64,000 nucleotides of DNA from Psammoneis japonica (Eukaryota). The stretch spans positions 1 to 64,000 of the forward strand of contig QPGO01000208.1 in NCBI GenBank assembly GCA_008632985.1, read 5' to 3'. The notes beneath the pieces were generated by a model. The model saw only the letters and a list, made by a program, of their open reading frames with translations, was not told the origin of the DNA and ran no database searches. Position numbers and translations under genes: made by a program. Positions 14,791 to 60,497 of the stretch are shown piece after piece. Numbering within the stretch: the stretch's first letter is position 1; each line of letters starts with the position of its first letter.

Positions 14791-14794
14791 AACA

Positions 14795-15078
14795 TGTTCT
14801 CTGTGCTCATCCAGAAGTGGTGGTTTGACCAAAGGCCCAAAGCAAAAAAGTGAGGCACGGCAGCTGGCTCCAGCTCTGTGTGTGAAAACAACAATTGCAC
14901 ACCTTGTGTGACACTTGAAAATTGAAATTTGAAATGAATGTTTTCAACCAAGGAAAGTGCAGTGAAAATTTGTTGTGCTGCCACTCCTCTGTGGTGCACA
15001 CACTTGTTGCTTTTGTTGAATTTCTCAATTGAAGGACCAGTTTGTAAAGATTTGAATTTTCAAATGTTAAAAAGCAGA
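14795..15078 (+). repeat. Dispersed repeat; diverged second copy at ~24055-24305
   Basis: Shared colinear blocks GGTGGTTTGACC…CAGCTGG…CTTGTGTGA…TGAAAATTGA…CTTGTTGCTTTTGTTGAA…GGACCAGTTTG…AATTTTCAAATGTT. Confidence 0.75.
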
Positions 15079-15299
15079 GGTGTCATGTGCCACAGAGTTG
15101 AGAAGCTTGATGTTGGCTTTGCCATGGCTGGCCAGCAGTGCCCTGGTGCAAAGCTGTCAACCACGATGGCTCATGAAGACATGCTGCTGAGCTGACAGCT
15201 TTGCTCAATGACAAGAGAGAAGTTTCACCAAGGCAAAAGTGATGAGGTCCACAGCCAAGTGCCAAGCTTTCTGCCCAGTTCACAGAGTTGTGCCAGCAT

Positions 15300-17960: not shown

Positions 17961-18089
17961 GATCACTAAAAGCAGTGCATTGAGGCTTTGACAATCCCAA
18001 GCTTGCAAGGGCAAGGGCAAATGCCATGGAAAAAGGGAGTGATCACACTGCTTTCCCCAGATTGCCTTGTCCTTCTCCAACACTGTGTC

Positions 18090-18420
18090 TCCCAAGGATG
18101 CTCCAGCTCCACTGCTTGCTCTCCCATCCTAAAAACACCAATGCCTGCACCTCAGGTCCAAACATTTTTCCAGTGCACTCACCAATCTTCTTCATGGTTT
18201 CTGTGCAACCATTTGCCTGTTGTCCCAACTCAGCAATGGCAGCATGCACCCACTCCTTCAACTCTTTTGCACCCCTGTGCTCAGCCACATCTTTGCCCAT
18301 TGTGCTGACCCAACACAACCTAAACTGCACCCTCCTTTTGCAGACCCTTGTGAGCACACTGCAACAAGGTCCCTGGAAATTGTTTGCACCACTCTTTCCA
18401 TGAAACCTCCAGCTGCACTG
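18090..18420 (-). mobile_element. Possible copia gag N-terminal relic
   Basis: NNFQG…QQANGCTETMKKIGECTGKMFG resembles, from memory, the diatom copia gag pattern QA..YT.T.K.I.EY.G if Cys is read back to Tyr. Confidence 0.3.
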
Positions 18421-20623
18421 CAACAAGGCTCTCCAGAGACTTTTCTGCCACCACACTTTCAGTGGACCCTCCAGCTGCACTGTGCTCTTTTTGGTGATGT
18501 CCACTGCTTGCCAATGGAGTGATGTCTCGCCAAACCCCTCAAGTGTCATGCCAGAACTTTTCAACTTCTGTTTTGGAGCTTGACAGCTTGCTGACAGGCT
18601 GACATTTGGTCTTGCTGAACTCCCAACTCACTGCATGGCTTGCAAGCATGTTGCCATTGCCGTTGTTGCCACAACTGCCATGCTGACCACCAGGTGCAGA
18701 AGCCCAAGAGTGGGAACAAGACCTGCCATTCATCAGAAGGAATGAACACATCTTTGCCATGTCATTTGCCTCTGTCAGCACATCCAACACTGCAGCACAG
18801 TCTGTCTGTTCTTGCAAAATTGCCTCTGACCCTGACGTTCCAACACAAATCCTTTAAGAGGGCATTGTGTGGCAGTGTCCACTGTCAAAAAATTGTTTTG
18901 TTGCACCCAGTCCTGCAGAGAGAAAGTGACAAATGTGTCAACAAGTTGCAGGTGTGGTGCTGTTGTCATCTCTTGCTGCTGGCACCAGATGCTGTGATGA
19001 ACTCAGCTTGGCAGAATGAGACTAACACTGAGGGGGTTTGCACACACAAGTTGTTGACACACAATGGCATTGCTGGCGAAAACAAGAAAGGAAGACCCTG
19101 AGATGCAGCAATCAAAATGACAAATGTCAGCAGCCCAGTCAGAAGCCTTGTGTCCAGTTTGGAAACAATCAACCTTTGGCTCACTCAATTGTGAGGCACT
19201 GTCGTTCTCATGGGATGCACAGCAGAACATGAGAAAATGCAACATCAGCAAAAAGAGTGAACCCAGTCAGCACATGAGTGGTCTGGCTGTGGCTTGCCAG
19301 AATCAGCGTGCTGCAATTTCTTGTCCACCACTGACCTCTCAACAGAGAGCCCTTGATTTCAGACACATGACAAACAATGAGCTTTGTTGGAAGCTGCTGT
19401 GCATCTGCAAAAACACCAGTTTTTTGCCAAAAGCAACATGCACTGCAGGACACACAACCACAACACTGTTGACCACATGGCTCTCCAGGTGTGTTCTCTG
19501 CTGAAAGCACATGGCCAACGGGCCAATGTGGTGTTTTTTAGTGCTCTGCCCCATGCACCACAAGCAAGAAGTGCAATGAGAAAGTCAACCAAGAAGGGAC
19601 TTGACACAAGCTTGTCACCGAAGTCACACTTTTGCAAAAAACACCAGCTGTTTTTTTGCACATTGCGAGAACAATTGCACCCAAGAGAGAAGAGGCACAA
19701 AATAAAGACAAGTGGCAGCTTCACTGTGTTGTTCTGAGCCAGTTTGAATTGCAGTGGAATTGCAAGATAGAAAGCCAGTGAAATGTGCCCATCTTGGGAG
19801 GTGAGATGTGTGTTGCATCAAATTGGCATGCCAGGGCACACACAGCAGACAAACTGGAGAACAGAATCATCTTCATGTGTTGAAGCTTGCTGCAAAAATG
19901 GACCTGGCCAGTTGGTTTTATTTGGAGCAGATGTTGCACCAAAAATCTTCACATGGTGGGCAGAGGCATTGTTTTTGAGCTCAATCAATGCCCACAAGGC
20001 ACTCTGCTCAACATGGTCCAGATCGGGTCACATCACACTTCTGATTGCCAAAAAAGCTTCGCCCACCTTGTCATCCCCTCAAGCAGATGCAACAATGTCC
20101 TCTGCATGTTGTTGTGAACAAAGAAAGGCTTGGTGTGGAGTGCAGTTGAGTTAAAGGAAAGAGCCTTTCCCAATGCCATCCTGACAGACGAGGTGTTCCA
20201 TGCCAAAGAGATGCAGCAGGACACATCCACCCACCACAGAAATGCATCAAATGATGAACTGCTGCACATGTGGACAACATCCAAGTCACGTGGCACACAC
20301 ACACCCATGGGCTGGTTCAGGCATGTGTGCACCTGTGAGGTGCAAGCAGAAAACATGTAAAATCACTGCTGAGTTGGCTCAACAGGCAGCAGATTTTTTC
20401 TCAAACACAGAATCACGCAAGTTCCTGAGGCTTTCACATGTCATATTCAAAAATGTGTACTATAATTTTTATAAGAATACAACAAAAGAATGAACGGGAT
20501 TTTGGAGGAGAATGGTTGTACTGTAACTTGCAGAATCGAAGAAGATAGATGTGTACCGTACTGTACGTAGAGAATGGAGAGCACGAAGTGGGCAGGAATC
20601 CGATGTATCTACCGACGCATGTT

Positions 20624-22721: not shown

Positions 22722-22965
22722 TCCCGCAACAGATCAATCGTATTCGTGACAGAAACGTCCATCAGCAAATCACATTTTAGCAGACATGAGAGCTGACCAA
22801 TCAGTTTCATTTTTTTCGCAACAGTTCAATCGCGTTCGTGACAAAAACGTCCATCAGCAAATCACATCGTAGCAGATATGAGAGCTGACCAATCAGTTTC
22901 ATTTTTCCCCGCAACCGAGTCAATCGCATTCGTGACAGAAACGCCGCCGTCAGAAAATCAGTTTC
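22722..22965 (+). repeat. ~93-bp tandem repeat (2.5 copies) upstream of the protease gene; each full copy has a CCAAT-box-like TGACCAATCAG
   Basis: CAATCG.. TTCGTGACA at 22735, 22827 and 22921; TGACCAATCAG at ~22794 and ~22886. Confidence 0.85.
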
Positions 22966-24900
22966 AAGTTCCTTGCCACCAGCTATGGCAGCTTGCAGCT
23001 AAAGCAGTCTCTGATGCGGCCGGCATGCGGGCGGGAGCTGTCTTCATTTTTTCCGCAACCTGTCGCCTGTCGCGCGTCCGCGGAGAGCGCTCAGCTAAAG
23101 AACAGGAGAGCGGAAGTGGTCCAAAGTTGTTTTGCAGGGCACTGCATGTGGCAGGCAGGCATGACAACACGCTCCTGACAGAAGATCAAATTGAAAGATC
23201 CAGCGGGCAAGCTCTCAAGCAAGGAAACAGCATCATGCATCATCAGTGGGACACACATCATTGCAAACAAGATGTGATTGTTCTGAAAACCAGAGCTCGC
23301 CTTCCTCAAACTCTTTGTGTTGCAGTTGGTTGCAAATCACGTGACGGTGGCGCAACACAGGAAATCAGAGTGGTGGCTCACCATTCCAATCAGCCGTGGT
23401 CAATGGTGCATGTTCCACCCACATGCATCTTGGGGGCAAACTTGTTGAAGATCATTGCCAGCGGTGCTTGTCAAGTTGAGAGAGTGTCATCTCTTTGAGA
23501 GTGTGGCTGGCAACATGGCACGGTCCAGCCAGATTTCAGCATGTCTTTGTGTGGCCAATGTTGACGATCTTTCTCTGATGGGGAGGTGAAGGGCATGGCA
23601 TTGTGCTGCCAGCCAGTGCAAGTGTGTTGTGCCTTCGAGACCCCAGGTTTCTGCTGGAGACAGCAGCCCAAGCTCGTGATGCACAGCAAACACACAAGAG
23701 TGGGCCATTGCACCAATCTCACAGCCAAATTCTGTTACAACAACAACATGGCACAACCGTTCAAAAAGTTTTGGTGTGCAAATGTGAAAAAGTTGCTCAA
23801 TCTGAGTGACTGTGATTTGTTCAGAACAAAAACAACAGCCCGCACACCTCCTTTGAATGCCACAATTTTCCAAACTGCTCATCAGTCGTTGGGGCAATTG
23901 TCTGTGGAGCATGGCAGTGATCTTCAAGATTTGTTGGTCAACTCAAGCTTGGCAGGGATGCAAGGGCCTCCTCTCTGGCAAATGGAAGGATCCAGTTTGG
24001 TGGTGGTTTGTCGGCGGTGTGTGAGCGATTCAGCTCCACAACTGACTCTCTGCACTTTCATCAAGAATGGCGGTGGTTTGACCACAGCAATGGCAGGGCA
24101 TGGCAGCTGGTTCCAAATTCACATGAACCAACATTGTGCAACTTGTGTGATGTTGTTTGAAAATTGACATCTTTTTCAAACACCGCAGCAAAAAATCTTT
24201 GTGTCACTCTGCAGGAGTGCACGCAGCTTGTTGCTTTTGTTGAACTTCTTGTCATTGGAGGACCAGTTTGCAGAAAATGTCAATTTTCAAATGTTGAAAA
24301 GTGCAACTGTCATGGCTGCATTTCAAGCGCCACATGGCTGACAAGCTTGAAGAAGCTGTTGGCTTTGTGTTTTGCGCACACATCGTTGACAGAGACACCA
24401 AAAGCAAACACTGGTGGACATTTTGGCACACTGGAGAAGATGCATTTGTGATGCAGCAGTGCAGTCAAGAGAGTGTTTGGGCAAATTTCTTGTTGGTGTG
24501 AGGCTCATCTCCAGCGGCGCTCTCATGGAGCAGAAATCCTTTGCACAGCTTGAGCGAGAGAGGTTTTGTTCTCTGTGGGAGCTCTCACACACTGCTTCTG
24601 TTGTCCAAGGAGACAATTTTGAATGTGATCAACTCATTTTCCTGCTGTGTTCCCACTTTCTAAGATGTCATGATGTTGCTCATGCTTGGTGGCTGCCTGG
24701 CGGGGGTTTCCCGGCTCCCTTCTTTTGCACCCCGTGTGTGCCACAGACTGTCGCTTCATCAACTGCTTGCTTTCAACTTGTCCTCTGCAATTGTTTTGAA
24801 ACCGATGCTTTTTAACATTTAACACACTGCAACACATGTTTCTCTCATGCGTCTCTCTGTCTCTTGCTGCACTGAGCCTCCTCGCATCTCCATAAAACAC
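22900..24900. other. Hypermutated block 2 (TpA-depleted throughout, CpG-depleted in the core)
   Basis: Same dinucleotide signature; contains the dispersed repeat shared with 14.8-15.1 kb. Confidence 0.8.
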
Positions 24901-43390: not shown

Positions 43391-44899
43391 AAAGCTCGCG
43401 ACGCGACTCGCCGAGAGTGTGCTTCGTGAGTTTTGGTGTGAGTTCTGCCATGTCGTGCGCGTGTCGCGTCCCGTTCTTTCATTCCAGCATTCAAATCGCA
43501 CATCAGTCGATCGCGCGCAAAAAGAGCAGTCGCGATGACGGCACGCCAACGATCCTCCTCACTCTGTGAGCATCTCCACTGGCAGCAGCTAGCTAGAGGT
43601 TTATCTCCGACTCTTCCACCCTTCCCGATTTACCTCTGGCCAGTGCCTCGGCCCTGCACCAGGTGTTGTCCTTCTTCTTGAGCCTGTCCAACAACCCAAC
43701 TCTCTGCTGAGAGATCACGACCACGGGCCTCTGGTTCCTCGGCCAAGAACCTGCCGGCAGTGCCATCTTTGAGTGCACACAGACTGTCGCCACAAACACA
43801 TGATGTCCAAACCAAGAGCTCCCTGTGTCGGACATGTTCCATCTCCTCTGTCACACATCTCCTTGTCTCTGATGTCTGCCACAACTTTGACCCTGACAAC
43901 CCTGCTCCTGTCATCTCATGGCACACTCCTCCTCCTCTTCGACACAATGCTCACTCAACATCTTGCATCAGCAGACAGGGAGTGGGTGCTGTTCCATCAC
44001 AGCCATCACTGCCCCCCTTTCTTGTCACTGCCCAACTTGCCCACTCTTTCTGTTGCTCCACACATGACTCGTCACTTCTTCTGGTGATTTTCTTTCGAGC
44101 CCTCCATTCTGTGCTCAACCATCTCTGTGCACACTTGTTGGACCACTTCCAGACAATTGATGCACCTCTGTCAGGTCTTCTGTCATTGCAGCGCTGCTCT
44201 TCTGCCCTGTGCCTTGATCCTCTCCTCTCCTCCCTTGCTGCCCCAGCAGTTGAAACCTTTTCTCTCAGCCAAGACCCTGTCCCCACGCCTTTCATCATGC
44301 CCACTTCCAAACAAGAACAACTTCGCCATCTCTGACAGCATGGACCACCACGTGTCACTGCCACCCCCTCTCTTCCATCACCAGCCTTTTGTTGCACTCC
44401 TCCCCTGCCTGCTCCATCCCAAGTCAATGCCCTCCACAAGAGATGTGCCTTCCATGTGATGCTGTTGTGAAAACTGTGCCTCTCCTCCTGGTTTCTGCTG
44501 ACCAACCCAACTCCACCTCTTGCCCCTTCTGCCATGGCACTGCTGACCCCGCTGCAGGAACCAACCCTCTGCAGCCACTCTTTGGGACACAAGATCATCC
44601 CATCCAATGCCTTCTGCAATGGCCTTTCTTTGTGGCGATGCTCCAGATGACAAAATCAGCCCTCACTTTGGCCTCTGTGTTGAATCCTCCACAGTCCACC
44701 ATGAACCTGCAAACCTCATCCCATGCTCACCCTTCAAACAACCTGCCAATGCAGGTGTCAACTTCCCCCCTGACTCCTCCACTGCCTCTTCCCTGGGATG
44801 CAACCATCTTGCAATTGATGTGGGAAGAACTTGCCTGCTGGTGGGACCAGGACTTTGTAAAAGTGCTGCTGACTAGTCCACAACTGTCACTGCAGCAGA

Positions 44900-45375
44900 A
44901 CAAAACATGAAGAATCATTCAGTTTGTCACCAGAACTGGGGAAGCCACAGAGAGTGCAACAATGCGAAATGAAGATCAAAAAAATCAAGACTCATCACTC
45001 GACTGCACCACACGGCAACACCTGGTGCAGCAAGAACATGAAATTGTGTGAGAACCATTTTGTTGCCATGTGAACATGAGCACCATGGCAGAGAGTGTCA
45101 TGATGCAAAGTCAAGATCCTGCATGCGTGCATGGATTTTCCCCCATCTGGATGAGCACTCAGCACTCGACCACTTCGTGCGGCAGTGCCTGGTGCAGCAA
45201 GAATGTGAAACATGAAGATCCATTCTGTTTGTCACGAGAACCAGAGGGCTGTGGTAGAGAGTGTAATGATGCAGAGTCAAAAGATCCTGCATGCGTGCAC
45301 GGATTGTGTCTTTGTCTGGATTGGCACTCGGCACTCGACCATTGTGCGGCAGTGCCTGGCGCAGCAAGAACATTT
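44900..45375 (+). repeat. Diverged ~170-bp tandem repeat, ~3 partial copies
   Basis: CACTCGAC…GGCA..CCTGG.GCAGCAAGAA at ~44996, 45163 and 45332; AAGATCCTGCATGCGTGCA twice. Confidence 0.8.
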
Positions 45376-45429
45376 GTTCTTGCACTTTTATTCAATGAGC
45401 CACACAACAAATTACTCTGTCTAACGTGT

Positions 45430-45960
45430 TGGTTTTCAGTGAACCGATGCGAGCAGACGGATCCAGATTTGAACGCGTTGACATCGCGTCCAATCGCAGC
45501 AACTCCAACCACACTTCCGTCTCCCGACAAGGCTGCGGTGCGTCCAAGTTGATCGAACTGAGCCTCGCCGTTGATGCACTCACCCATTGGAATCCACTTC
45601 ATTGCGTCAGCATTGAACTGAAACATTCCAACTTGACCTGCCCGAGCAATTCCATTGACATCGTGGAAGTGACTTCCAACAGCAACGACGGTCCCATTTC
45701 CACTCAATGAAACCGAATTCCCAAATTCATCGCCTGGCTGTTGTGTGCGCAGAGTTTGACCTTGCTCTGTCCAAGCAGCGTTTTCGCGGTCGTAGACAAA
45801 TACGGAAACCCTCGCTCTCCTTCGTGGAGCACCCATGGCCATGACTGGACCACTGTCATCCAACGAAAGCGAAGTTCCAAACTCGTCACCTTCAACCTCC
45901 CCGATGAGTGGATCACCCATGGGAGCCCAACGACCAACACAAGGAGCGGAACATGGAATG
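45430..45960 (-). pseudogene. FG-GAP-like beta-propeller gene fragment
   Basis: MGDPLIGEVEGDEFGTSLSLDDSG.VMAMGAP; GDEFGNSVSLSGNGTVVAVGS; WIPMGECINGEAQFDQLG…LSGDGSVVGVAA. No recognisable start; lies inside block 3. Confidence 0.8.
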
Positions 45961-45969
45961 TCTCAAGCA

Positions 45970-46360
45970 GGTCGTCGGAATGATGACTCCAGCGTTGACA
46001 AGTCGTCGGAATGATGACTCCAGCGTTGACACTACGCCGTTGACGATGGACAGCGCTGATGGCTGTGCACCAGACACTCCAATGGATGGCGACAGCATTG
46101 AATTTGCAGCACACAAAGGGGCGCCAACGCCTCAGCGATTTATCGCGCGGACGTTGACAATGGATGGAGCTGATGGCTACACACCAGACACTGCAATGGA
46201 TGGCGACAGTGGTGAATTTGCTGAACGCAGGGGGGGGCTCAACAATCCCTCAGCGATTTGTTGCACCGACGTTGACGATGGATGGAGCTGATGGCTGCCA
46301 GGGCCCTGCACACCGGATGCTGCAATGGATGGCGACAGCAGTGAATTTGTCAAACGCAAG
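45970..46360 (+). repeat. ~116-bp tandem repeat x3 preceded by a 30-bp duplication
   Basis: GTTGACRATGGA…GCTGATGGCT…CAATGGATGGCGACAG…TGAATTTG at ~46039, 46153 and 46271; GTCGTCGGAATGATGACTCCAGCGTTGACA twice. Confidence 0.85.
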
Positions 46361-46809
46361 GGAGGGGGGGGGGGGGCAACACGTCATCCATTTGTTGCAC
46401 CGACGGCTCCAAATTCACTCCTTGGCATCCTCGCGCCTGCAGCAGCACACGACACCACAACTGCTTCGCAGGGCAAGCCAGCCGTGATGATTGATTCCAG
46501 CAAGAAACTGACAGGCTTTGATGCCTCAAATGTTGCCAAGAAACAAACAACCCCCCCGATTGCTGAGTCGGCCAAGACACCAACGCCCCCCATTGATGGC
46601 ATTGATGCCTCAATTGTCGACAAGCCATTTGCCGCCCCTGTTGTCACCGCAGCCAAAAAGCGCCTTCACCAGAAAGATGCAGTCACACCACAAGACGCTG
46701 AAATGTGGGAAGACTCTCAGTCACAGACTTCTGTCTGCTGACATTGACAATGCAAACGTTGGAGAAGATCGTGCGGGACAACATTCTTTGGACTAAATGG
46801 GGCAGTCTC

Positions 46810-49450
46810 TGGTCAACGTGAGATGCACCTGATGATTGGACATTGTTGCAAAGCACATTTTGCAATCCTGGCATGGCTTTCCACGAAACTCGAGGGTTGC
46901 GGGAAGTTTTTGGCTTGATTCTCATGGCGAGTGCGGACAAATTCTTCCAAATGGCGTTGTGCGCTGCCAAAGTCACCCGATCGAAACTCCATGGTTCCCA
47001 TGCATTAAAGTGCGGCAGCACCCTTTTCATCATTTCGACCATGAACCATGGTTTGAATTGCAAGCGCCTCCTTGCGCGCTTGCATTGCGGGTTCCATCTC
47101 TTCCATGTCACTGCAAACGTTGCCCATTGCAACCAACGCATCTGCAACCTTCTTGTGACCGTCACCCAACTCGGTTCTTTGAATGCGGAGACATTCTTCA
47201 CAGCATTCGGCGGCCAAATCAAGTTCGCACTTCTCTCTGTGCACGTTTCTGACATTCTTGAGAGTCTCACACACTTTGATGAGATCTTCTTGGAGCTTCT
47301 GGATTCTCAGAGCATCCCAAAGCAATGAGAGCGCATCATCCATTTCTCCACACTTCGCCTGCAGGAAGCCTGTCATGTTCAGCGTGTCACCAACCTCATT
47401 GAGTCTTCGTCAAGTCACAATTTCCGAATGTTCAAAGCCTCCTCAAAGCATTGTGAAGCCCGCTCTGGCTCATCTTGAATGTGCAGCGTGAATCCCACAC
47501 TGTGCAAAGCAGCTGCAACATCCTCAAGCACCTCAGCACAGCATCTCATCGCCTGATCACAATCACCCATGCCATCTGCCAAGTCACCAAGCTCATGCAA
47601 AACAACCCCCACCAGCTCATGATCTTTGCCATGCACGACCAGCTTGCAAATTTGCAGAGCTTCTTGAAAGGCAGTTTCTGCTTTCTGACTGTGCCCTGTG
47701 GCCTTGGAAAGGGCGCCAATCTTTTCATGTGTGAGCACCACCTTCTCACTGTCAGGTGATCGGGGTTGATGGATTTCAAGCTTAGAAAGACTTTGTTTGA
47801 GGGAGGACAAGGCCTTCTTGTGCAGCCACAACAAACTCCACAAAACCCAAGGATGCAGTCAACAAGTTTTGACTGGTTTCCCAGTGCAATTGGCCGAATG
47901 CCATGATCGCTTCTCTGCAAGTGAATGGTCAATCGGGTGCTGCTCATGTCCAGTCTCCAACTGCAAGGCTTGTTCTTCCTCTGCCTTGCACCCACTGTCT
48001 CCAACCACAAGAAAGTCACCCAAGGCCCAGTGCACATGCTCCATGAGCACTCGAGGATGCTTCTTCCTCTTCACTTTTTCTGTCCAATCCTTTGGCAAAT
48101 TGCAGAGCTCTTTGCAGTCAGCAATGTGTTGCCTGGCAGCACATCCCTCCCCATTGTGTCGACATGTGCCTTTACGAACTCCTTGTCCTGCAACAACCCA
48201 GGTGCTTTTTCACACATTTCAGCTCGCAACATGCACAAACCAACAATTTCCATTGTGCAGTCCCTTGATGCATCAAGTGTTTTGATGTCACAGCTGTCCA
48301 ATGATGTCACACGGACGTTGACGAATTCTTGATTCCATCATCACTCTGCATCTTCAGTCAAGCCAAGCAACTCTTCTTCAAATGCCAAGAATTCACCATG
48401 CTCATGCTGCAATTCATGCATGACTTGCAAGAACAGTGTCTGCAACAAACTGTCTGTGGAGCTCTTGTTTGCAGCTTTGTCAAAGCTTTGATCATCGGCA
48501 GAGGATGCAATCACTTTCACAACCCCCAAGGCAGACAATGCTTCTGGAATGAGCATTGTGGCCTCCATTCTTTGTGAGAAGACAAGGCTTCCTTCCTGAA
48601 ACAATTTTTCTTCTTTGCTCTCAAGCAGCATTTCAAACAAAAGCTTCGCCAATGCCACGGGAATCACAGGTTGAACTTCAATTGGCAAGAACAATGAGTG
48701 GTGTTGTTGATTGCAAAATGCAGCACAAAATGTTGAAAAGCAAAACTTGATGGCCAGAGTTGGTTTTCCATTGATGGTGGGGGAAGAAGCCACACTGAGG
48801 ATTTCACACTTTGTGTCATCCATTCTCTGGCCTGCAATGCCATTGATGGCATGTGCTGCTTCACACAAGCCGTGCTGCAAAACTGGCTGAAGTTGTCCAA
48901 AAACTTTTTCTGTGATGGGCGCAACACCAAAAGCAGAGGTGAGAGCATCACACAGACATGACTTTTTCAACAGCTTCTCTGTTGCTCGTGACCCCTGCAA
49001 GCTCCAATTCATTGGAAACTTGCAAGAATGCCTTTGTCAATTTCTTGAAGGCATGTGCCATGCCATGCTCTGCCACTTGACACTTGGTGTCGTCATTTTT
49101 TGTGGCTGAAAGGTTTTCCAATCCAGTCTTCCTGTTGGGGTGCAGCTCTTTGAGCATCTCACTCACACCTGGCTCCAATTCCTGCAAGGCTTCAACTCAT
49201 TCACAACAATGGCTGCGCTCTTCTGTGTCTTCTGAACTCAATTCTTCTTCCTCATCCTCCTCAGAAATGGCAGAAGTGTGGGTGAGAAAGATTGTCTCTT
49301 GACAAACTCTTGCTCCTCTTCTTGACCATCATGGGAAGTGCTCTTGTCCTCTTCTTCACTTGTGCAGTTGCTTGACTCTCTCCCTCCCAACTGTCATCTT
49401 GTGATTCTTCATCTTCTCCATTCCCTGTCACATCATTGGTTGCTGTTGCA
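46810..49450 (-). pseudogene. Relic of a large TPR-repeat (kinesin-light-chain/nephrocystin-3-like) gene
   Basis: TPR text in several frames: GELGDGHKKVADALVAMGNV-like, LAAECCEECLRIQR, AMQARKEALAIQTMVHG, VAAALHSVGFTLH…ASQCFEEALNIRK. Upstream protein-like frames extend to ~49.4 kb; many frameshifts. Confidence 0.8.
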
Positions 49451-52400
49451 TTGTAGACTTGCATTCCTTCACACTCCCATTGTTCAGACCGGGACAAATG
49501 GTCCATTCAATCATCATGCAATGACCCTTGATCATGAAAAATGCTGAACGTTTGTAGAGCTGCAAGATGATGCATTGGCGGCCCTCATCATGGCTCATGG
49601 TGGGTGTTTTTTGTGATGTGTGATGTGCCTGCGCAGTGTGCTGTTGCGCAAAACAAGAGGCTTTCAAAAGGTCCTTGACAACAGCAAGACAGAACTTCCC
49701 TGATTGAGATGCAGACAAGACACAGCTCAACAGATTGCCAGCAACAGAAGGCATTTGCTGGCACCACAAATCTGTGATGGTGTCATTTCACTGGTGCAAC
49801 TCTTGCTGCTGGCACCCATCACCCCCGCATCCATCAGCTGGCATGCCTGCAATGTCAACTCTTGGTGTTTGTCTTGTTCCCAGCCCCCCCTGATGCCGGC
49901 AACAACCACGATGATGTCACAAGCAATGTGGTGTCATTTCACCGGACACTCCATTGCTGCTGGTGCACCTGCAATGTCACTGCTGGTGGTCGCCCATAAT
50001 TTGATGTCTGTGACCAACCTCACACAGCCAATCCTGTTCCCGCTGCACCTGTGACAGTGCCTGGCCACACTGCCATCCACTGTCATCCCCCCCCTGCCAG
50101 CAGCAGTGTGAGTGGCAGCACTCAACTGACAAGAACATGACAACAATGCATGCATTGTTCATTTGTCACTGTGTTGCCACACAAATCACCTCACACCATC
50201 ACTGATGTTTTCAATTTAAAGCTGCCAAGTTCTCACCCATTGCCTTGTGTGGTTTTTCTGCCTGCTCTGCTGTGTCCATTCCCATCACTTTTGTTGGCAG
50301 CAACTGCCTCAGTCATCTCAATCACAGCATCACAGTCTCCCAGCTCATTCATGTTGTCCATCTTCTCCACCGTGCTGCTGTTGGTTTGTGATCCTCTTGG
50401 CAACAAAATGCTGCACAAGATCACATGAGAAACATCAGGCACACATGCCACATGCTCCACCAACTGTGCAGATTCTGTGCTCACCTTCTCCTGGAGCATT
50501 GCCCCTCTTAGAATTGCCTGCATTCTGGGGTTTGCTTCCATGATCAGTGCAAACTCCACAGTGTTGTTCTGCACATGGTGCTGTGCAACAACTTGTCATT
50601 CTACATGGAAGATGACAGTGTGGTGCAACATGACAGAATGTGGGTAAACTCCTGTCATTCTTGGGTGGCAACACTGTGCCATCATGTTTGTGACAACACA
50701 CACAATCACATTGCATGTGTCATGCTCACCTGTTGCGCACTGTCTTGCTTTGCATTGCTCATGCTGCTGTCACTGTCTTTGTGTTGTTGTCATTGTCTCA
50801 TTTGCCAGCAATTTGATGGTGTGACTGTGACCATTTTTTTGTGCGATGTTTGCACGCTGTTGCTGTTTCAGTGCTCTGTGCTCACAGTGCAAGTTCTGTG
50901 TAAAATCAACCAAGCACAAATGTTGTGATGTTCAACTCAGCAGTTGTGCATTTGTCATTCAAAGAAATGCAGTTGTTTGTTGACAAAGTTTCTTGGATGT
51001 TTTTCAAACACATGCTTTCTTCATCAGCTGTGTGGCATTTTTGACATTTTCATTGAAATGTCTCTGTGCTCCAAGCCATCATTTTGACCAGCCAGAATGA
51101 CCAAATGAAAATGATGCAGTCCTGTGCTGACCACATTTGGCAACACATGTCATGGCAGTGCACCTCTGTTCCTGTCCATGATGCAGCCACGGGCAGCAGG
51201 GTTCTCTCCATTGCATGCAACCATCATTTGTGATTGTCTGTTTGTGCTGCCCCACGCATCACTGTCATGCCATTGTCTGGGGCAGAAATCCAGCATGAAT
51301 GCAGAGAGAGACAAAAGCACTGGAGTGTTGTTTTGTGTGGTGGAGATGTGCCTTTTTGCCACAGAGCCAAGCCTGTCAATCTCATGAACATTGTCTGCGT
51401 CATTTTGCAAGTGGCAGTTGTGCAAAAACCACTTTGGTTGTGTCCATTTTTGAAGTTTCAAATCATTTGAGCCAACTTGAAAATGAGTCATTTTGTTCAT
51501 CTTCGCTGCCGATGCAGCACTTTGCTTGTGAGCTTGGAAGAGCTGATGACCATTGAGCATTTTTTCAATGTGATGTGGCACACTTGTTTTTGAGGAAGAT
51601 TGGTGTCTCTCAGGTTGATGATCTTGGCCAGCTCTCATCAAGAATGAAATTTTCACATTTGTGTTTGCTTTTTTGTGTTGTCATTTGGGCTGCTGTTGTG
51701 ACAGATCTTTGCAGCTGTTCCACACATGCACAACAAGAACCTTTGTGGCTGTTGCAACAGTCTCATCAGCATGGTTGAAACTTGCAGGCAGTGGTTCAGA
51801 AGAGGTCACGGAGTTTGTTGCACAACCAGGCTGGTGTTGTGCAGCTCTGGTGCCATCTGTCTTGCATCCTCTGCCTCAGCCACAAGCACACTTCAAACTT
51901 CAAACTCTCAACTCCAGAACAAAAAGACCCTTTGATGGCACCAACCAATGCAACAACAGAATGATGAGGGCATTGGCAGCATCATGTTGATCCCAGGTGA
52001 CACAGCAACAACTGTGGCTGAGCAGTGCAAGGTGCCTGTCATGTGGCTGTGGTCCCAGCATGTCACCTTGGCCCAACAGGAGGAAGAGAGCAGGCTGGAC
52101 AAGCATCTCAACTTGACAGTGAAAGGGCAAAATGGCAGTGCCAACCAACTGGTTGCAAGCTGAGGACACTGGTGGCATCTAACAGACATCAGGCAATGTT
52201 TTGAGAGATGTTGTTGGGCATTGCAACATTGACCTGGCGTTGTTGTTCCTGCTTTCTTGTCCCCAGCAGCAGCAGGCTTGATTGATCTGGTGGCACTGCC
52301 ACCTTCTTGTCCCTTCAACAGGAGCAGTGGGCATGACTTTCCCAACTCCAGAGTGCAAAGATCCCCTGTGACAATGCCAGACAACCTGACAACAGCAAGC

Positions 52401-53084
52401 TGAGGGGGCACTGGTTGTCTCTGGTGGGCTCCAGGCAGGAGAGACTTTGAGAACTGTGGTTTGTGAGCAGCACTTCAAGCTTCATTTTGTGGTGTGTTGT
52501 GCACATCACCTTGTCCAGATGGGAGGAGCAGACTTCTCTTGTGGTCCCCAGGCAAGACTTGGAGAGTTGTGTTTGAGCATTGCAAGGTTGATCTTGTGAT
52601 GTTGTGGCCCCATTGTACATTGTTTCCAACCATGGCAGGTCAGCAGCAGACACCACCCTGCATGATTTTCCAGGTGCAAGAGTGAACAAAAGTTTGATTG
52701 CAACAGAATGGCAGTGTGTGACTGAAACTTCAAAACACAGTGTGCTGGGAACACTGGCAACATGAAACTTGCATTGCTGTTGTTGAGGCTGTCTGCAACT
52801 TTTTTTTTGCTCTTGACAAGAAGAATTCATTGCAAAGCTTCCACAAGTTGTGCGACAACAATTGCGCAAATGTTGACTTTGGTTTTTGTTGTCAAAATCA
52901 AGCTCCAAACAACAACAACAACTTGACTCTCTCCTTGTCACACGTCCAGCATGTCAATTGTCATCTTTTGTTTTCAAAGACAGCTGCACACCAGATGGTG
53001 GCACACTCATGACAGTTTCCATGTTTTGTTGTCAAGATCTTGTTCACAATTGACACACTTGTTTCAAAGCCAGCTCATTCCATG

Positions 53085-54720
53085 GCTCTCTCAACCATGG
53101 CAGCCTTGCACCTCTTGACCATGTCTCTCAAGATGTCACCTGGTGTCAACAAAAGACTGTGTTGGCACCTTTGGACTGCAGTTGTTGGATTGGTTGCTGG
53201 ATGCATGCTGTCCTTCCACTGCAGAGCTGGGATTTTCAGTCTCACCCTTGGCTTTGTGTGAAGTGACATGAGACCAGAGCTGAGCCAGGGTGGCCTTTCA
53301 ACTCTCAGCCATGGCCCTCAAATGCCAAATGGTGTCTGCCAAAGACACTTGATGCCTTGTGGCTGCAGTTGTTGGGTTGGCAGGTGTGCTCACAGTGTCC
53401 CTTCACTGCAGAGTTGAGGCTTCAAGTCTTGCCTTTGGCAAGGTGTGAAGCAGCAACAGGGGCAACAACTGATCCAGGGTTGCCTTGCAACTCTCAACCA
53501 CAGCTCTTAAAGTGTTGCCTGAGGTCCACCAAAGACCCTCAATGCCTTGTGACTGCAGTTGTTGGGTTGGCAGGTGGCCCACCAAAGACCCTCAACACCT
53601 TGTGACTGCAGTTGTTGGGTTGTCAGGTGCACTCATGGTGTCCCTCTTCACTGCAGAGTTGGGATTTCAAGTCTCACTCTTGGTTTTGTGTGAAGTGACA
53701 TGAGGCCACTGCCTGGCCAGGGTGGCCTTGAAACTCTTGACCATGGCTTTGAGTGTTGCCAGGGGTCTGCTGAAGGCCTTCAGCACCTTTGGATGGCAGT
53801 TGTTGGGTTCTCAGGTGCACTCGTGGTGTCCCTTCACTCTGCTGAGTTGGGGCTTCAAGTCTCACCCTTGGTTTTGTGTGAAGTGACATGGGGGACAGCT
53901 GAGCCATGTTGGCCTTGCAGCTCTTGACCGCAGCTCTAAAAGTGTCACCAGGAGTCTGCTGAAGACCCTCAATGCCTTTGGATTGCAAAAGTTGGGCTGT
54001 CAGGTCCACTCATGGTGTCCCCACACTGCAGAGTTGGGATTTCAAGTCTCACCCCTGGCAAGGTGTGAAGTGACATGGGGTGACAACCCACCCAGGGTGG
54101 CCTTGCAACTCTCAACCACAGTCCTTAAAGTGTTGCCTGGGGTTGACCAAAGACCCTCAATGCCTTGTGACTGCAGTTGTTGGGCGGTCAAGGTGTCCCT
54201 TCACTGTGGACTTGGGACTTCAAGTCTCATCTCTTGTGGATTTTTGTGAGGTGACATGAGGCCAGAGTCAAGCCAGGGCAGCCTTTCAAAACTCTCAACC
54301 ATGGCTCTCAAAGTGTTGCCTGGGATCCACCAAAAACCCTTGATGCCTTTGGACTGCAGTTGTTGGGTTGTCAGGGGCATTCATGGTGTCCCTTTGCTGC
54401 AGAACTGGGGCTTCAAGTCTCACCTTTGGCTTTGTGTGAAGTTGCACAAGGCCACAGCTGAGCCAGGGTGGCCTTGAAACTCTTGACCACAGCTCTCAAA
54501 GTGTTGCCAGGGGACTGCAAAAGACCCTCAATGCCTTTGGACTGCAGTTGTTGGGTTGATTCATGGATCCATGGCACCCTTCCACTGCAGAATTGGGTTT
54601 TTAAGTCTCAACTTTGGCTTTGTGCAAAGTGACACGATGCCACAGCTCAGCTGGGGTGGCCTTGCAACTCTTGACCACAGCTCTGAAAAAGTGTCACCTG
54701 GGGTCCACTGCAGAGCTGAC
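53085..54720. repeat. Tandem array, ~188-bp unit, ~8.5 diverged copies
   Basis: GACTGCAGTTGTTGG-like anchor at 53174, 53361, 53551, (53604, a 53-bp internal duplication), 53792, 53981, 54169, 54352 and 54540. Confidence 0.95.
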
Positions 54721-57039
54721 AAGTCTGTTCTCATCATTGCAGCAATGACTTCTGGCACTTTCTTGCAGTTTGGTCTTGATCTTAGAGCCCTGGTTGCTTG
54801 AAAACGTCTCTTTCTAAGGAGACGTGAACAATTGAAGCTGTGCTCTGAATTGATCTGTTGCAGCTGGCAGAGACAACTCCCAGCTGCAACCAGCCATCAA
54901 AAGCACTGGCACACACTGGTTTGTGATGTTGCTCTCATTCAACAAAGCCATTCTCACCATTGCAGTGAGAGCTGCTGGTGCTTTGAGCCTGCAGAGAGAA
55001 CTGCCTGCATGCACACCAAGCTCTGGATCAAACCCACTTTCATGGTTAAATGGCGCCAACTGTGCTTGTTGACTCTCGCTGTTGCTTGCATTCAACATCC
55101 TTCCACACAATGGTCACTTCCTGGACTGTTGCAAGGCATTCAATCTGCACCATTGACAAACTGTGCATCATTTCATGAGTGCCAAATGACAAAAATGGGT
55201 GTCTGACAGAAGGGCTTCATCTCCAGCTGTCATCATTTGCCTGTTGCTGGCAGCATTTCTTTCTGCAGCTTGGCTTCAATCTCAGAGGCAATGGCTGCTT
55301 GAAAATGCCTCTTTCCAGACAATGTGAACAACCCAAGTTGCACTCTGAATCATTTGGCTGGAGCTGTCACATTCACAGGATTTGCAGCCCACCTGCGCTT
55401 GCAGAATTTTTTTGATGCTTGACAGCCACCCAGGATTGTCCCATTCATTCACAGAGGGTGGCATTTGAGCCATTGATTGAAACTTTTGGATGGTTCAACA
55501 CAGACATTGAGTTGACTGACAGTCGCAAACAATCTTGACAAGCAAGGATTGCTGTGCTTGCTTTTGCTTTTGACATGAAGAGCACAGCCAAAGAAAGACC
55601 TCATGCCTTTCTGTGTCATCTTCATTGAGTCCATCATCCAAGTCATGGGTGCCTGCATCATGCGCTCAACATTTGACCTTCAAAACATTTGCTGTCATGT
55701 TGGATGCAGAACAAACAAACAAAAAAATTGAGTGGAAAGTTCAGATGACAATTGAAGGCATTGAATGAAGATGCCATGCCTTGCTTGAGTGCCCACACCT
55801 CATGACATTGAGATTTTAACAAACTCTCCAGGTTTTTCTCACATTTGGAGTCAAACATTGCTGCCGCTGCACCCAATCCCATGGTCAACTTGAGCTGTGT
55901 CCGCGTCTGCATTTTGGAATGACACAGAAGAAAAATTGATTTTGTGGGTCACACGAGAGCACTTTGGTCAAAAGGCCCAAAAGTGTCATGAGTGGGTGTC
56001 ACAGGCAAGGGGAGGGGGTGAGAAAGAAGGTCACAAACTCACAAAAGGTTGGGGGGGGGGGGGGCAACAGGAAGGCTGTGATTCAGATGAGCAGTGCGTT
56101 GCTGGCAGAGGGGAACTGGAGAAAGTTGTTGCTGGCAAGTGGGGTTGAATTTGCCAGCAGTGCACATTGCAGGCAAAATGCCAAAAACAGACAGCACTGT
56201 CCACTGGTCTTTGCTGTCACACACCAGAAACAACTTGTGTTGCTCAACATTTGAAGGCAGTGGCCAGTTGCAAGACAAGAAAAAGGAGCTTCTTCATGTT
56301 GAAGGCAATTGTGGCAGCAACAGGCATCACTCAGGCATTGTCTGGATTGGCTGCAGAAAAGTCCATGGTGGTTGAGAAAGCAAACAATGCAAACCACAGC
56401 CTTCATTCTCACCCCCAAAACAACCCTGACAATCCTGTGTTTTAATGAATTGTGATCATGGTGAGTGATGTTCCGATCAGCCATCATGCTTGGCAACCAC
56501 ACTCAGCAATCATGCTCAGCAACACACCAGGATGTGCAGAATCCACACAAATTCCAAAACAAGGCCCAATTTGATGATTGTTGGGACCAGGTCTTGCAAG
56601 TGCCATGAAAGTGTTGACTCGAGTGACTGAGTTTTCAAACAGCCACATTTTTCAGCCATCCTCAACAACCACCAACCATCCCCTTTGGTTTCTCAATGTT
56701 GCTTTTGCATGTTGAGGGAAGTTTTGTAAGATGAGTTTTTGCATGCGGTCTTTGTGGTGTGTGTTTGAAACCTTCATCATGAACTTGTGATGCACTGGCT
56801 GTGATCTCACAACACAACCATGATGCAGAGCAGACAGCAACACATTTCTCCAGCTCTTGCAGCCTCTGTGGCTGATCAGCTGTGATGCCATCTAAATGGC
56901 ATTGCCATGCCATCCTCCAAGTTGGGTCATGTCAAAGTGCACATTCGCAGAGAGTGAAACAAGGAAAGACAAAAAAAACAGAAAAAGAAAAAATGACAAA
57001 TCTGCTGTGCAAGTCATTCATGATGATGGGTGCAGTGGC

Positions 57040-57990
57040 AAGATCCCTCCCACACAACAAGACCATGATGGCATGGAAGAAGAGCTGGTTGTTGTTGTGG
57101 TCTCAGAGGAAATGCCAAAGAAGAAACAGGAATGGGAGGCAGTGGACAGCTGCAATTCTTGCCTGACATGATTCTGATGATGACAATGACAGCAGCAGAG
57201 GAGATTTGCCACCAAGACAATGAAAGCATTGCAACTCACTGAGTGCATCACCTCCTTGCAGAAAAAGCCATCAGACAGTGACAGCAGTCACAGGCTTGTG
57301 TGCGACATCAGATGGTGAGCATTCTCTTGCAAGAAGATGCTGGAGGCATGATTCAGGTGACAGCTCTCCTCCTCCCAGAAGAAGGCACAGGCATGGTTCT
57401 GACCATGCACAACAATCAGCAGGGATCACATTCAGTGCTTTGTCCTTCCATTGATGTGGAGTCACTTTGTCAACTGCACAGCACAGCAACAAATCGGGCC
57501 AACTTGATTTGCAGTCTTCAAGAGCTCTTTCACAGCCACTTGGCTGGGACCCTGATGATGAGCTTCCTCCCACACAAGAATGTCACAATTTAGAAGAAAA
57601 GCTGGTTGTTGTTGTTGTTGTGGATGCAGAAGACAGAAGAAATGGGAGGCTGTGGACAGCTGTGATTCTCACCCGACACAATGACAGCACAGCAGAGATG
57701 ATTTGCCACCAAGACAAAGAAAGCATCACAACGTGCCAAGTGCATTGCCTTCTCACAGAAAAAGTCATGACTCAGACAGTGGAAGCAGCGTGCAGGCTCA
57801 CAAGTGACACAGACATGACTCAGATGAGAGCAAGGATTCTCCTCCAAGGAGATGCCAGAGATGTGATTCAGATGACAGCTCTTCTCCCTGTGGAAGAAGG
57901 CACAGACATGATTTGGACAATTGAAGTCCATCTCCTCCAAGATGCCACAGACATGACTCTTCTGACAACAGTGGCAGCAGCAATGGTGGA
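57040..57990 (+). repeat. ~520-bp diverged tandem duplication
   Basis: CCTCCCACACAA…GAAGAA.AGCTGGTTGTTGTTGT…AATGGGAGGC.GTGGACAGCTG…GATTTGCCACCAAGACAA at ~57046 and ~57566. Confidence 0.85.
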
Positions 57991-60497
57991 GAGACAATGA
58001 GTTTGGGTCACACACGGCATGTTTTGTGGAATTGAGCAAAATGCAAACAGAGTCCTTTGCACAGAGGGCTGATCATGAGGGCTCAGAAGACATGAGAAAG
58101 AATGAGATTTATGCAGAAGAAACCATGGCTGCACATTCAATGGTGTGAACAGACTGCTGGTGGGGAAAGGTGGACAGCTGGCCATGTGGATTTGGTTTTT
58201 GGATCCAATTCTAAGCTTTGAGAAATTGCTGAGTGCTGTGCCTGTGGCAATTTGCAAAGCGTGTTTGCAAGCAATTTTGCCAAGGCATGGACAAAAATTG
58301 TGAATCTTGATCATTTTGACCAGGCTGTGAATGGCACTTCTGCACCCAAGTTGAAGTCATGCTTCTGGAGCTTGAAAAGCTGTGGCAGGGAGGCAAGACA
58401 TGATCACATGAGTGCTTCATGACAAGCGTCAATTGTGCCCACAAAATTTTCATCCCTGTGTCTCATTGCACTCGCAGCATGGTCATTCACAACAACAATT
58501 GAGACAAGACAAAGAAGCAACACCCTTTCTTGCTGTGATGGCAACAACATCTCTGGTCTTCAAGCAACCATTGGGGTGGACTTTTTGCCTGTGCAGTTTT
58601 GTCAGCAGGGCTGTGCTTGTTGCTTGCGTCACTGAGGTTTGTGCCTTTGCCAGGGGTGTTTTGCACACTGCTTGCATTGCATGGGTTTGCACGTGAGCTG
58701 GGATGCATTGTTGTGGTGAAACCCACCCTCTGCAGTTTGAAGATGCCACATCAATGATCCTTCATTGAGTGCAGAATCTCCAAGTGTGAGTGTGCAAGAA
58801 AGTTGAAGAATCAAAAAGGCAGCAGTGCACAACAAGGCAGACCAAGTTCAACCATGATGTGTGCAAATGGAAGAAACAACAAAGACAGCAGGCCAAGAGA
58901 TGTAAAAGAAGACAAGATGCTGCCAAAACCCTTGAAAAAAAAACTGCCCAGGAAACACTCATGCACTGATTTGAGCTCCAGTGCAAAGAGCAATTCTCTT
59001 GTCAATGGACTGTCAAGAGTGTCTTCATCATGATCAGAGCAGCGTGCACCATGACAAGCCCAGCAGGAGCCGCGATGAATGCATTTTCACAGTCATTTTC
59101 AAAATGACACATTGAGATGCTGACGCCGCACTTGGGGATCCACAAATTGTCAAAGTGACACATTTTGATGCTGACCCCACAATGCTTGGGAATCCCTGTG
59201 CAAGCAAGGGCCAGCCCAGCCCCAAAAGGCACGCCAACTGGTCCAATCCTGAATTGCTTGAGTTTGTCTTTGCTCAACCAACCTGCTGTGGATGACATGT
59301 GTGCAAGGGCAAGGGAAAGACTCAAAAAAGGTGCAACAATGCCACACTGGATGAGAAGAGTGCTTGAGCGGCACAGGCTGCATTGTCTCCTTTGGTGCTG
59401 CATCCCCCCAAGTCCTCTGTTGATGATGTGACATCTGTGCAACTCATGGATGGGAGCATGCCATGCTGAGCAGTGCTCTTCTTTCTTCAAACCATGTCAT
59501 GTGTCATGAAAGATGATCCCAATTGCATTCAATGCAAATGACTCAGCAGCTTTGAGACAACTGCACATGACGCCTTTTGTCCTTGGCAACAAAATGAACT
59601 TGCAGCAGAACAGACAAGATGGCTGAGATTCTCAGCATCCATGCCAAGATCCTCTGGCATCTCAGCAACTCATCACCTTCTCATCCACACAAATGACCTG
59701 CACTGTCCTGGTTGAAGGTGATGAAAAAAGTCGCCGGGCATGCAAGGGGGTGTTGCCCAACAAGGAAAGAATTTGTTCTGGATGCACAGTGCTCCATTTC
59801 CTGGCCTTGCAATGGTTGCAACTGACAGTCCTGACTTTGCAGCCACATGAAGGACCCGCAGCACCGAAGTGGCCTCAAAGAACTTTTTGAGGCACACGGC
59901 GCTGAGAAAGAATGCACGTCAAACATGCCTCAAACAACTCACAATTCGGCGCCACTCCATCAAACTCATGGATCTCACAAGTGTCATCAAATGCATGGGC
60001 TTTCAACAAGACTGATGTAAATGCAGGACTGCATCCTCCCTGAAGCCACCGCCAGCACAGTTTGGTCTAAAGAGGCACAAGCTGAGCGGGCCCCAGCCAA
60101 CTTTTCTTGGCCTCTGTCAGTGAGAATGGATCAGCTCTTGCTTGCAAAACCACAGAAAACCTCTTCACTCCTTCTCCAAATGCTGCTTTGTAAGTCAGGA
60201 GAGGAAAGTGGTGAGCAGAGTCAAACCTCTCAGAGACAGCCTGGCACTCTAGAATTAACATAATGTGCTGGCTGCATGGAATAGCACGATCATCTAAGCT
60301 CGATAGGATCACCAACTGCGCCAAAATAACCATCGCGAAACTTTCTTCGAACTTTAATGCAACGGAGAAACGGCCCACGCCACGTAGATTTCTACGTGTC
60401 TTGTACCACGGACCACGGCGCCTCCATTGCAGACAGAATCTCTTCTCGTTCGAGTGCTCTCACAATTTCTGAATTGCTCGTCAGTTCACAGTCCATC

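Follow-up and report, generated by a model that had tools for sequence, protein, structure and literature searches.

Why do a few TpA steps persist in tracts of a chromosome from which nearly all others have disappeared, and what do they say about the agent of the loss? The question is raised by a window of 64,000 nucleotides, the whole stretch of DNA analysed here, which comprises positions 1 to 64,000 of the forward strand of contig QPGO01000208.1 from Psammoneis japonica (assembly GCA_008632985.1). It holds three sharply bounded blocks in which the dinucleotide TpA (TA) has given way to TpG (TG) and CpA (CA), and the few TA that remain follow a rule set by their neighbours: most are YTAR (Y, pyrimidine; R, purine), and RTAY is nearly absent. 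A first-pass annotation, made by eye from the sequence, had noticed this preference and suggested that it is an enzyme signature. We put the probability that the flank rule reflects the substrate preference of a TpA-directed DNA mutator at about 0.7. The blocks themselves are best explained as repeats and pseudogenes that have been silenced in a compact eukaryotic genome.

Three blocks of TpA erasure

Blocks were detected with a 500-base scan of the window and dinucleotide tables for each block. The density outside the blocks served as the baseline for expected TA, CpG (CG), TG and CA; it represents neighbouring, mostly coding DNA and may differ from the ancestral contexts of the blocks. Block 1 (10300..20400) has an observed-to-expected ratio (o/e) of 0.05 for TA and 0.08 for CG, with 31 TA left within 10550-20150, the conservative limits of the kind used for all survivor counts. 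Block 2 (22900..24800) has a TA o/e of 0.02 and a CG o/e of 0.42, with 4 TA left. Block 3 extends over 43400..60200 in a 100-base profile of TA, CG and TG+CA. Its main part (47400..60250) is poor in both TA and CpG (o/e of TA 0.03, CG 0.14, TG 1.86, CA 1.89), and its younger part (43550..47399), where TA is erased and CpG partly kept, has 18 TA left. Across the three blocks, TA o/e is 0.02-0.09 and that of TG and CA 1.4-2.1, compared with 0.60 for TA, 0.99 for CG, 1.14 for CA and 1.20 for TG outside them.

The loss of CpG follows a different course. CG o/e in the blocks is 0.08-0.42, except at 45000-47400, where it is still 0.76 despite a TA o/e of 0.09. Because TA is erased where CpG is kept, TA erasure and CpG decay are separable, and the former seems to precede the latter. 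At 22950-23450, likewise, TA is erased and CpG largely kept.

About 93% of the TA steps are gone from the blocks, to TG or CA. Measured against the outside density, the blocks lack 995 TA and 1306 CG and hold 1088 TG and 1206 CA in excess, such that a combined loss of 2301 is matched one for one by a gain of 2294, and transition products account for all losses. TA is the sole A/T dinucleotide to be lost; AA, TT and AT show no loss, and AA o/e is 1.07-1.27 in the blocks and 1.14 outside. GC-biased gene conversion, which the first-pass annotation had discounted, is rejected on these grounds: G+C is the same inside and outside (about 0.45-0.53), TA alone is lost among the A/T dinucleotides, and the joint loss of TA and CG is fully met by TG and CA.

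TG and CA are also in balance locally, with an absolute z of at most 2.3 in 55 of 55 windows of 500 bases, so both strands have been affected about equally. A local strand bias that might identify the decisive flank was sought in these 55 windows, and all were balanced. The block borders are sharp within 100-200 bases in the 100-base profile (at ~10300, 20400, 22900, 24800, 43400 and 60200); partly mutated edge zones were sought at these borders and none was found, the edges being too sharp. Within the blocks, reading frames are interrupted almost only by TGA.

Flanking bases of the remaining TpA sites

In total, 81 TA remain in the blocks: 31 in block 1, 4 in block 2 and 46 in block 3. The flanks of these sites depart strongly from the NTAN proportions that the window's unmutated parts lead one to expect, with 47 YTAR, 32 RTAR or YTAY (mixed) and 2 RTAY against 11.5, 45.1 and 24.4 expected (p=7.7e-30). 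YTAR thus makes up 58% of the remaining sites and RTAY 2.5%; a context-blind origin from the CA and TG of the blocks, judged by the flanks of those dinucleotides, would predict ~23% of each. The rule recurs in separate blocks. Within 47400-60250, where 30 TA remain against ~497 expected from the outside density, the YTAR, mixed and RTAY counts are 17, 12 and 1, against 4.3, 16.7 and 9.1 expected (chi-square p=7.5e-11). Block 1 (10550-20150) gives 23, 8 and 0 (n=31, p=6.5e-21), and the younger part of block 3 gives 6, 11 and 1 against 2.6, 10.0 and 5.4 expected (n=18, p=0.015).

The tally by eye had described the survivors of 47400-60250 as mostly YTAR, with a mixed minority and RTAY nearly absent, and had stated that block 1 behaves alike; the counts bear out both statements. 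The nine sites that it named are all present: CTTAG at 47781, TTTAA at 50215, TCTAA at 52178, 54813 and 56891, CTTAA at 53506, TGTAC at 52614, TTAAAGTTAA at 10791 and CTAG at 15416.

Comparing NTAN inside and outside the blocks, as the first-pass annotation had proposed, gives survival values that are graded by context. Survival is highest in TTAA (0.42) and CTAA/TTAG (0.34), and falls through CTAG (0.13), GTAA/TTAC (0.11), ATAA/TTAT (0.056) and CTAC/GTAG (0.042) to ATAG/CTAT (0.017), GTAC (0.012), ATAC/GTAT (0.006) and ATAT, of which 0 of 75.5 expected are left. For a first-order Markov null, the NT and AN dinucleotides were taken from the blocks themselves. Survival that is uniform across contexts is rejected against this local composition as well (deviance 48.0, 9 degrees of freedom (df), p=2.6e-7); the residual contexts are not those expected from local base composition, and the earlier rejection of compositional drift is upheld.

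The sites that yield these counts can be treated as nearly independent, since just one pair of remaining TA shares homologous positions in the two repeated structures of the blocks. These are a 188-base tandem array in block 3 (53146..54702, plus strand; Tandem Repeats Finder and alignment) and a 2-kb duplication in block 1 (copies at 12345..14411 and 15334..17409, both on the plus strand; self-BLAST and pair alignment, 75.6% identity).

A half-site model and a second flanking position

A simple mechanism could generate such a gradient. A DNA-level, region-targeted mutator would have acted on both strands, converting TA to TG or CA, with CpG decay to TG and CA as a separate process. Each TA would offer two half-sites, one per strand, and the neighbouring base would set the rate of each; on the strand of the A, TAT would be at least as fast as TAC, followed by TAG and then TAA, and an A two bases downstream would lower the rate further. 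YTAR would survive because it is poor on both strands, and RTAY would be gone because it is good on both.

This scheme was expressed as a half-site model in which log survival is the sum of two one-neighbour terms. With four parameters it fits the survival data (deviance 3.7, 6 df, p=0.72), compared with a deviance of 118.3 for uniform survival. The fitted half-site rates (95% interval) are 0.33 (0.10-0.53) for A, 0.94 (0.64-1.32) for G, 2.09 (1.72-2.51) for C and 2.79 (2.28-3.50) for T, giving the rate order TAT >= TAC > TAG > TAA on the strand of the A. Equal rates for A and G are rejected (p=7e-4), the difference between T and C is marginal (p=0.047), and a version that distinguishes only purines from pyrimidines is significantly worse (p=7e-4). 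The order of erasure that had been estimated by eye, RTAY > ATA/TAT > GTA/TAC > YTAR, agrees with these rates.

The base at +2 also matters. Of the 162 half-sites, 87 have A at this position where 42.9 would be expected to (p=2e-13), and the excess persists when the +1 base is A (46 vs 25.2) or G (24 vs 12.9). Counts of the remaining bases all fall below expectation, to a similar degree (G 25 vs 36.2, C 26 vs 38.7, T 24 vs 44.2 expected). The effect at +3 is weak and that at +4 is null, and the blocks are not A-rich at the matching position after CAA or TGA (0.24-0.28). The further protection by A at +2 is a new addition to the flank rule.

Which flanking base is read

The products of the mixed contexts should differ with the side on which the neighbour of the edited A is read. 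If the base after an edited A is decisive, YTAY becomes YTGY and RTAR becomes RCAR; if it is the base two positions ahead of the A, YCAY and RTGR result. In each of the 26 one-kb block windows, RCAR+YTGY outnumbers RTGR+YCAY, with an excess of 21.3 per kb in the blocks and 3.9 in 33 outside windows (p=4e-6). The fitted rates were also used to predict the products in 16 contexts: the sum of squared errors is 63079 for reading as T-(A)-N, brackets marking the edited base, 84201 for symmetric reading and 133437 for N-T-(A), with a slope of 1.25 +/- 0.56. These product counts favour +1 as the base read and suggest that the edited A is followed by a pyrimidine; the choice of +1 over -2 rests on a product asymmetry that is confounded with CpG decay. 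We infer that the agent would be an enzyme that deaminates adenine to hypoxanthine, which is read as G, and that the decisive base would lie 3' of the edited A.

Weighing the alternatives

Several observations weigh against reading the rule as the preference of a mutator. The evidence base is 81 sites in one window. A multiplicative version of the half-site model, corresponding to a symmetric dimer on the palindrome, fits as well as the additive one, so independent strand events and cooperative palindrome recognition are inseparable by fit. Among models of the origin of the remaining sites, compared with four parameters each, one-shot survival has a deviance of 3.7; a steady state of uniform re-creation and context-dependent erasure (10.7) and re-creation alone with a rate set by the base 5' of the deaminated C (10.8) fit worse without being rejected outright (p about 0.095), and re-creation alone by the base 3' of CA reaches 15.6. 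At five surviving YTAR columns of the tandem array and the block-1 duplication, all 11 cells of the sister copies read CA and none reads TG, a pattern that would suit either shared descent or a YCA that was turned back into TA. TA cannot be credited with the product asymmetry, since CpG decay makes the same products, and the asymmetry is weak in the six 500-base windows that keep CpG (28.3 vs 24.2, with ~19.5 vs 17.6 outside). Surviving CpG has a flank trend of its own, with TCGA, CCGA/TCGG and CCGG least kept (0.12-0.14) and GCGC most (0.42). Flanks of the 33 TG-versus-CA doublets in the block-1 duplication are mixed in 22 cases and symmetric in 11, which speaks against a strong strand choice set by the flank; a moderate bias of about 0.7 fits. 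Finally, other dinucleotides are off the baseline by up to about 400 counts (GC +413), which implies a large baseline error.

Three further observations bear on these points. The CpG flank trend is the same in the CpG-poor parts alone (0.06 to 0.25), and it fits either faster decay with a pyrimidine before the C or a link to local G+C. In the tandem array, the other copies at two TTAA columns carry CA (5 and 3 copies) and never TG. In the block-1 duplication, all 3 TA-versus-CA sites lie in Y..R flanks.

The sister copies and the CpG trend both lend themselves to the idea that erasure was blind to context and that the remaining TA were re-created afterwards by C-to-T change at Y-C-A (TCA -> TTA, CCA -> CTA, with mirror-image changes on the opposite strand). 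In that case the flank rule would describe a cytosine-deaminating process, ordinary or enzyme-driven, and not the TA eraser. Besides the CA-only sisters of surviving YTAR, this idea draws on the presence of TTA or TAA within 63 of the 81 sites, on rates by the base 5' of C that run T 0.035, C 0.017, G 0.003 and A 0 (6 df, p=0.095 at the deviance of 10.8), and on the mild preference of CpG decay for a 5' pyrimidine. However, it is 7 deviance units worse than survival with an equal number of parameters, 18 of the 81 sites contain neither TTA nor TAA, and the T-over-G preference that it requires is >10-fold, compared with a CpG trend of about 2.4-fold. The young, CpG-retaining part of block 3, where re-creation should be rare, is already depleted in RTAY (1 vs 5.4 expected; p=0.015 overall). 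Moreover, the blocks hold 6358 CA+TG sites and 81 TA, which implies that erasure is recent or still running; re-created TA would then be filtered by the eraser's own preference anyway. On balance, re-creation is unlikely. An enzyme as the agent of the context preference is an interpretation that we share with the first-pass annotation.

A different possibility concerns the base attacked. Oxidised thymine is mutagenic towards C, and TET/JBP-type oxidation of the T in TpA of silenced repeats, to 5-hydroxymethyluracil (5hmU) or a further oxidised base that is misread as C, would turn the rule into R-(T)-A. TA -> CA on one strand and TA -> TG on the other are alike in sequence. A dinoflagellate TET/JBP homologue is described as making repeat-enriched 5hmU that aids transposon silencing, and older work cited there has thymine replaced preferentially in TA and TC (PMC11572971). 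The likeness to the present case lies in base modification of transposon-rich DNA with a preference for the T of TA; the differences are that 5hmU is treated there as an epigenetic mark, with mutagenicity not shown in that account, and that TC is also a preferred site (PMC11572971). The blocks give no sign of TC -> CC (TC -263, CC -50), and the sole measured case of TpA hypermutation is discussed by its authors as adenine deamination (Mettrop et al., bioRxiv 10.64898/2026.01.13.699255). Thymine oxidation is accordingly a quite unlikely source of the pattern.

The remaining sites might, lastly, reflect inherited composition, if the ancestral repeats were rich in TTAA and CTAA and poor in RTAY and erasure was context-blind. 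The ancestral repeats may have differed from the baseline in this way, and YTAR is commoner in non-coding DNA than in the coding baseline. Nevertheless, uniform survival is rejected against the blocks' own first-order composition (the deviance of 48.0 given above), the rule recurs in blocks of differing content (block 1, block 3 and its gene-derived young part), and RTAY would have to be ~12-fold under-represented in every block. We regard this explanation as very improbable.

Comparison with known systems

The closest parallel to a TpA-directed mutator is found in Bigelowiella natans, in which de novo A-to-G and T-to-C mutations, all at TpA, are reported for two integrated viral regions, and for which Mettrop et al. 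propose an ADAT2-like deaminase (bioRxiv 10.64898/2026.01.13.699255). As in the hypermutation of integrated giant-virus and virophage DNA described there, TpA alone is affected in the window, the products are TpG and CpA, and the change is restricted to particular foreign or repeat-like regions, forming genomic clusters poor in TpA and rich in CpA and TpG. The genes next to the blocks are untouched, as in the B. natans pattern; the blocks carry at most weak transposon signatures, and no viral genes were found in them. B. natans, unlike the present organism, is a chlorarachniophyte and belongs to another lineage. No flank rule was found in the main text of that preprint, which uses neither 'context' nor 'trinucleotide'. 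In the part of the literature that was searched, neither a diatom report of TpA erasure nor a flank rule was found.

Other mutational and editing systems share single features with the blocks. Repeat-induced point mutation (RIP), as it occurs in Neurospora and other ascomycetes, resembles them in region-wide, dinucleotide-specific transition hypermutation of repeats, with sharp edges and copies that are killed. RIP turns CpA into TpA, raising TA; the blocks go in the reverse direction, losing TA (o/e 0.02-0.09) and gaining CA and TG (1.4-2.1). Fungal RIP, which requires a TpA excess and a CpA/TpG deficit, is rejected, as the blocks show the opposite. It is summarised as a C-to-T process in the account of Mettrop et al. 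(bioRxiv 10.64898/2026.01.13.699255).

The first-pass annotation had named TadA, ADAR and DNA polymerase eta (Pol eta) as context comparators, and of these only the TadA/ADAT2 family fits, and then in part. Pol eta acts at a WA motif, hits AA as well as TA and causes many transversions; it is rejected because AA is not lost and the losses are fully matched by transition products. The natural substrate of TadA/ADAT2 is tRNA, not chromosomal DNA, and the target A34 is preceded by U33. It is followed by C-G, the target being 5'-ACG (Table 1 of PMC10661471). The window would share with this family the A-to-I chemistry, as inferred here, and T-(A)-C is a good context in both. The flank rule strictly demands T at -1 and prefers C at +1, where T does no worse than C; this last feature departs from the TadA/ADAT2 target, as does position +2, which reads A alone with G not favoured.

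ADAR resembles the inferred activity in its A-to-G outcome and in a preference for U or T before the edited A. It tolerates other 5' bases, unlike the present case, in which AA, CA and GA are spared. The hot spot of ADAR is 5'-UAG (Table 1 of PMC10661471). ADAR-type editing is rejected because TAG, with a rate of 0.94 compared with 2.09 for TAC and 2.79 for TAT, is the second most spared half-site. The enclosure of tandem arrays and gene remnants within contiguous, sharp-edged blocks also points to action at the level of DNA, unlike that of ADAR.

Contents of the blocks and surrounding genes

The rest of the window is densely filled with eukaryotic genes, most of them poor in introns, with Pfam matches to NYN, SAP, PPR, protein kinase, trypsin with ricin lectin, and a long FG-GAP repeat protein. 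A protein-atlas comparison placed the kinase no more finely than 'Eukaryota'. The block borders adjoin intact kinase and trypsin/ricin genes, and an intact open reading frame (ORF) of 406 codons without a Pfam match (60357-61577) lies beside a block edge. The onset of the TA-free zone (43400-43550) lies within the intact kinase gene (42422-43549, minus strand; Pfam), ~150 bases in from its 5' end, such that the mutated domain slightly overlaps a live gene. Towards the start of the window, at 1549-2041, a tandem array of 99-base units that are ~92% alike lies inside a 793-codon minus-strand ORF that matched no Pfam family.

Gene remnants are found within block 3. An FG-GAP pseudogene in the TA-erased zone (45420..45956, minus strand; Pfam FG-GAP_2, E 9.5e-8) is a distant paralogue of the intact FG-GAP gene (26526-31717; Pfam) by tblastn (E 2e-22, 36% identity). 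It has two tyrosine positions usable for a Tyr-to-Cys/His comparison that bears on the strand rule, of which one is kept and one is His. The intact gene contains many internal repeats that are ~70% alike, yet it is unmutated, whereas the distant pseudogene in block 3 is mutated; internal repetition alone thus seems to be no trigger for TA erasure. The 3' half of the intact gene (29200-31700) is a C-rich array (~48% C) of diverged repeats, in which AT dinucleotides are nearly nil (2-5 per 500 bases) and TA is not depleted. The second remnant in block 3 is a TPR gene (TPR_12/TPR_10; 47409..47819, minus strand; Pfam E 4.4e-13), for which no solved relative was found by sequence.

The wider contents of the blocks were surveyed by running Pfam on six-frame readings with TGA as X, in 33 frames of block 3 and 26 frames of blocks 1 and 2. 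No transposon domain was found in the 33 frames of block 3, which gave the FG-GAP_2 and TPR remnants only. In the 26 frames, the sole match is a weak one to SH3_retrovirus in block 1 (E 7e-4, below the Pfam cut-off). Viral genes were absent from all of these scans, and 50000-54000 had no match among phage records. Block 2 carries a 735-codon frame with TGA as its only interruptions, for which no homologue was found among 5266 candidates.

Contigs of the one public sequencing run found to contain the stretch, probably its source, confirm the sequence. Parts of block 3 show a rise in their summed depth from ~64 up to 770, which indicates that those parts are multi-copy repeats. Differences between contigs and window number 297; among the 40 that are listed, most are CpG versus TpG/CpA, three involve TA (50645 GTAA/GCAA, 51920 ACAA/ATAA, 56040 TCAC/TTAC) and four are TG-versus-CA doublets (49141-49142, 49339-49340, 49961-49962, 54966-54967). 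Such doublets are as expected if alleles or repeat copies resolve one ancestral TA or CG independently.

Implications

Only one preprint, on one alga, has to date described a natural, region-targeted rewriting of TA to TG and CA in chromosomal DNA, and it does so at the level of the dinucleotide. A quantitative flank rule offers a testable fingerprint, against which the de novo mutations of Bigelowiella lines, about 231 at TpA, can be set. Candidate deaminases or thymine oxidases could be ranked with it according to their preference in vitro, and TA erasure could be separated from CpG decay in the dating of repeats. Should the agent be an adenine deaminase acting on duplex chromatin, it would also be of interest to those who build base editors.

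A broader proposal, which we put forward tentatively and regard as rather doubtful, is that T-(A)-N, with N in the order T>C>G>A and a protective A at +2, marks the action of a dedicated DNA adenine deaminase that is recruited to silenced repeats in algae of the stramenopile, alveolate and rhizarian (SAR) lineage, the same activity as in Bigelowiella natans. If this were true, TA erasure would be an old and widespread 'reverse-RIP' genome defence, and its enzyme could be sought by matching the fingerprint.

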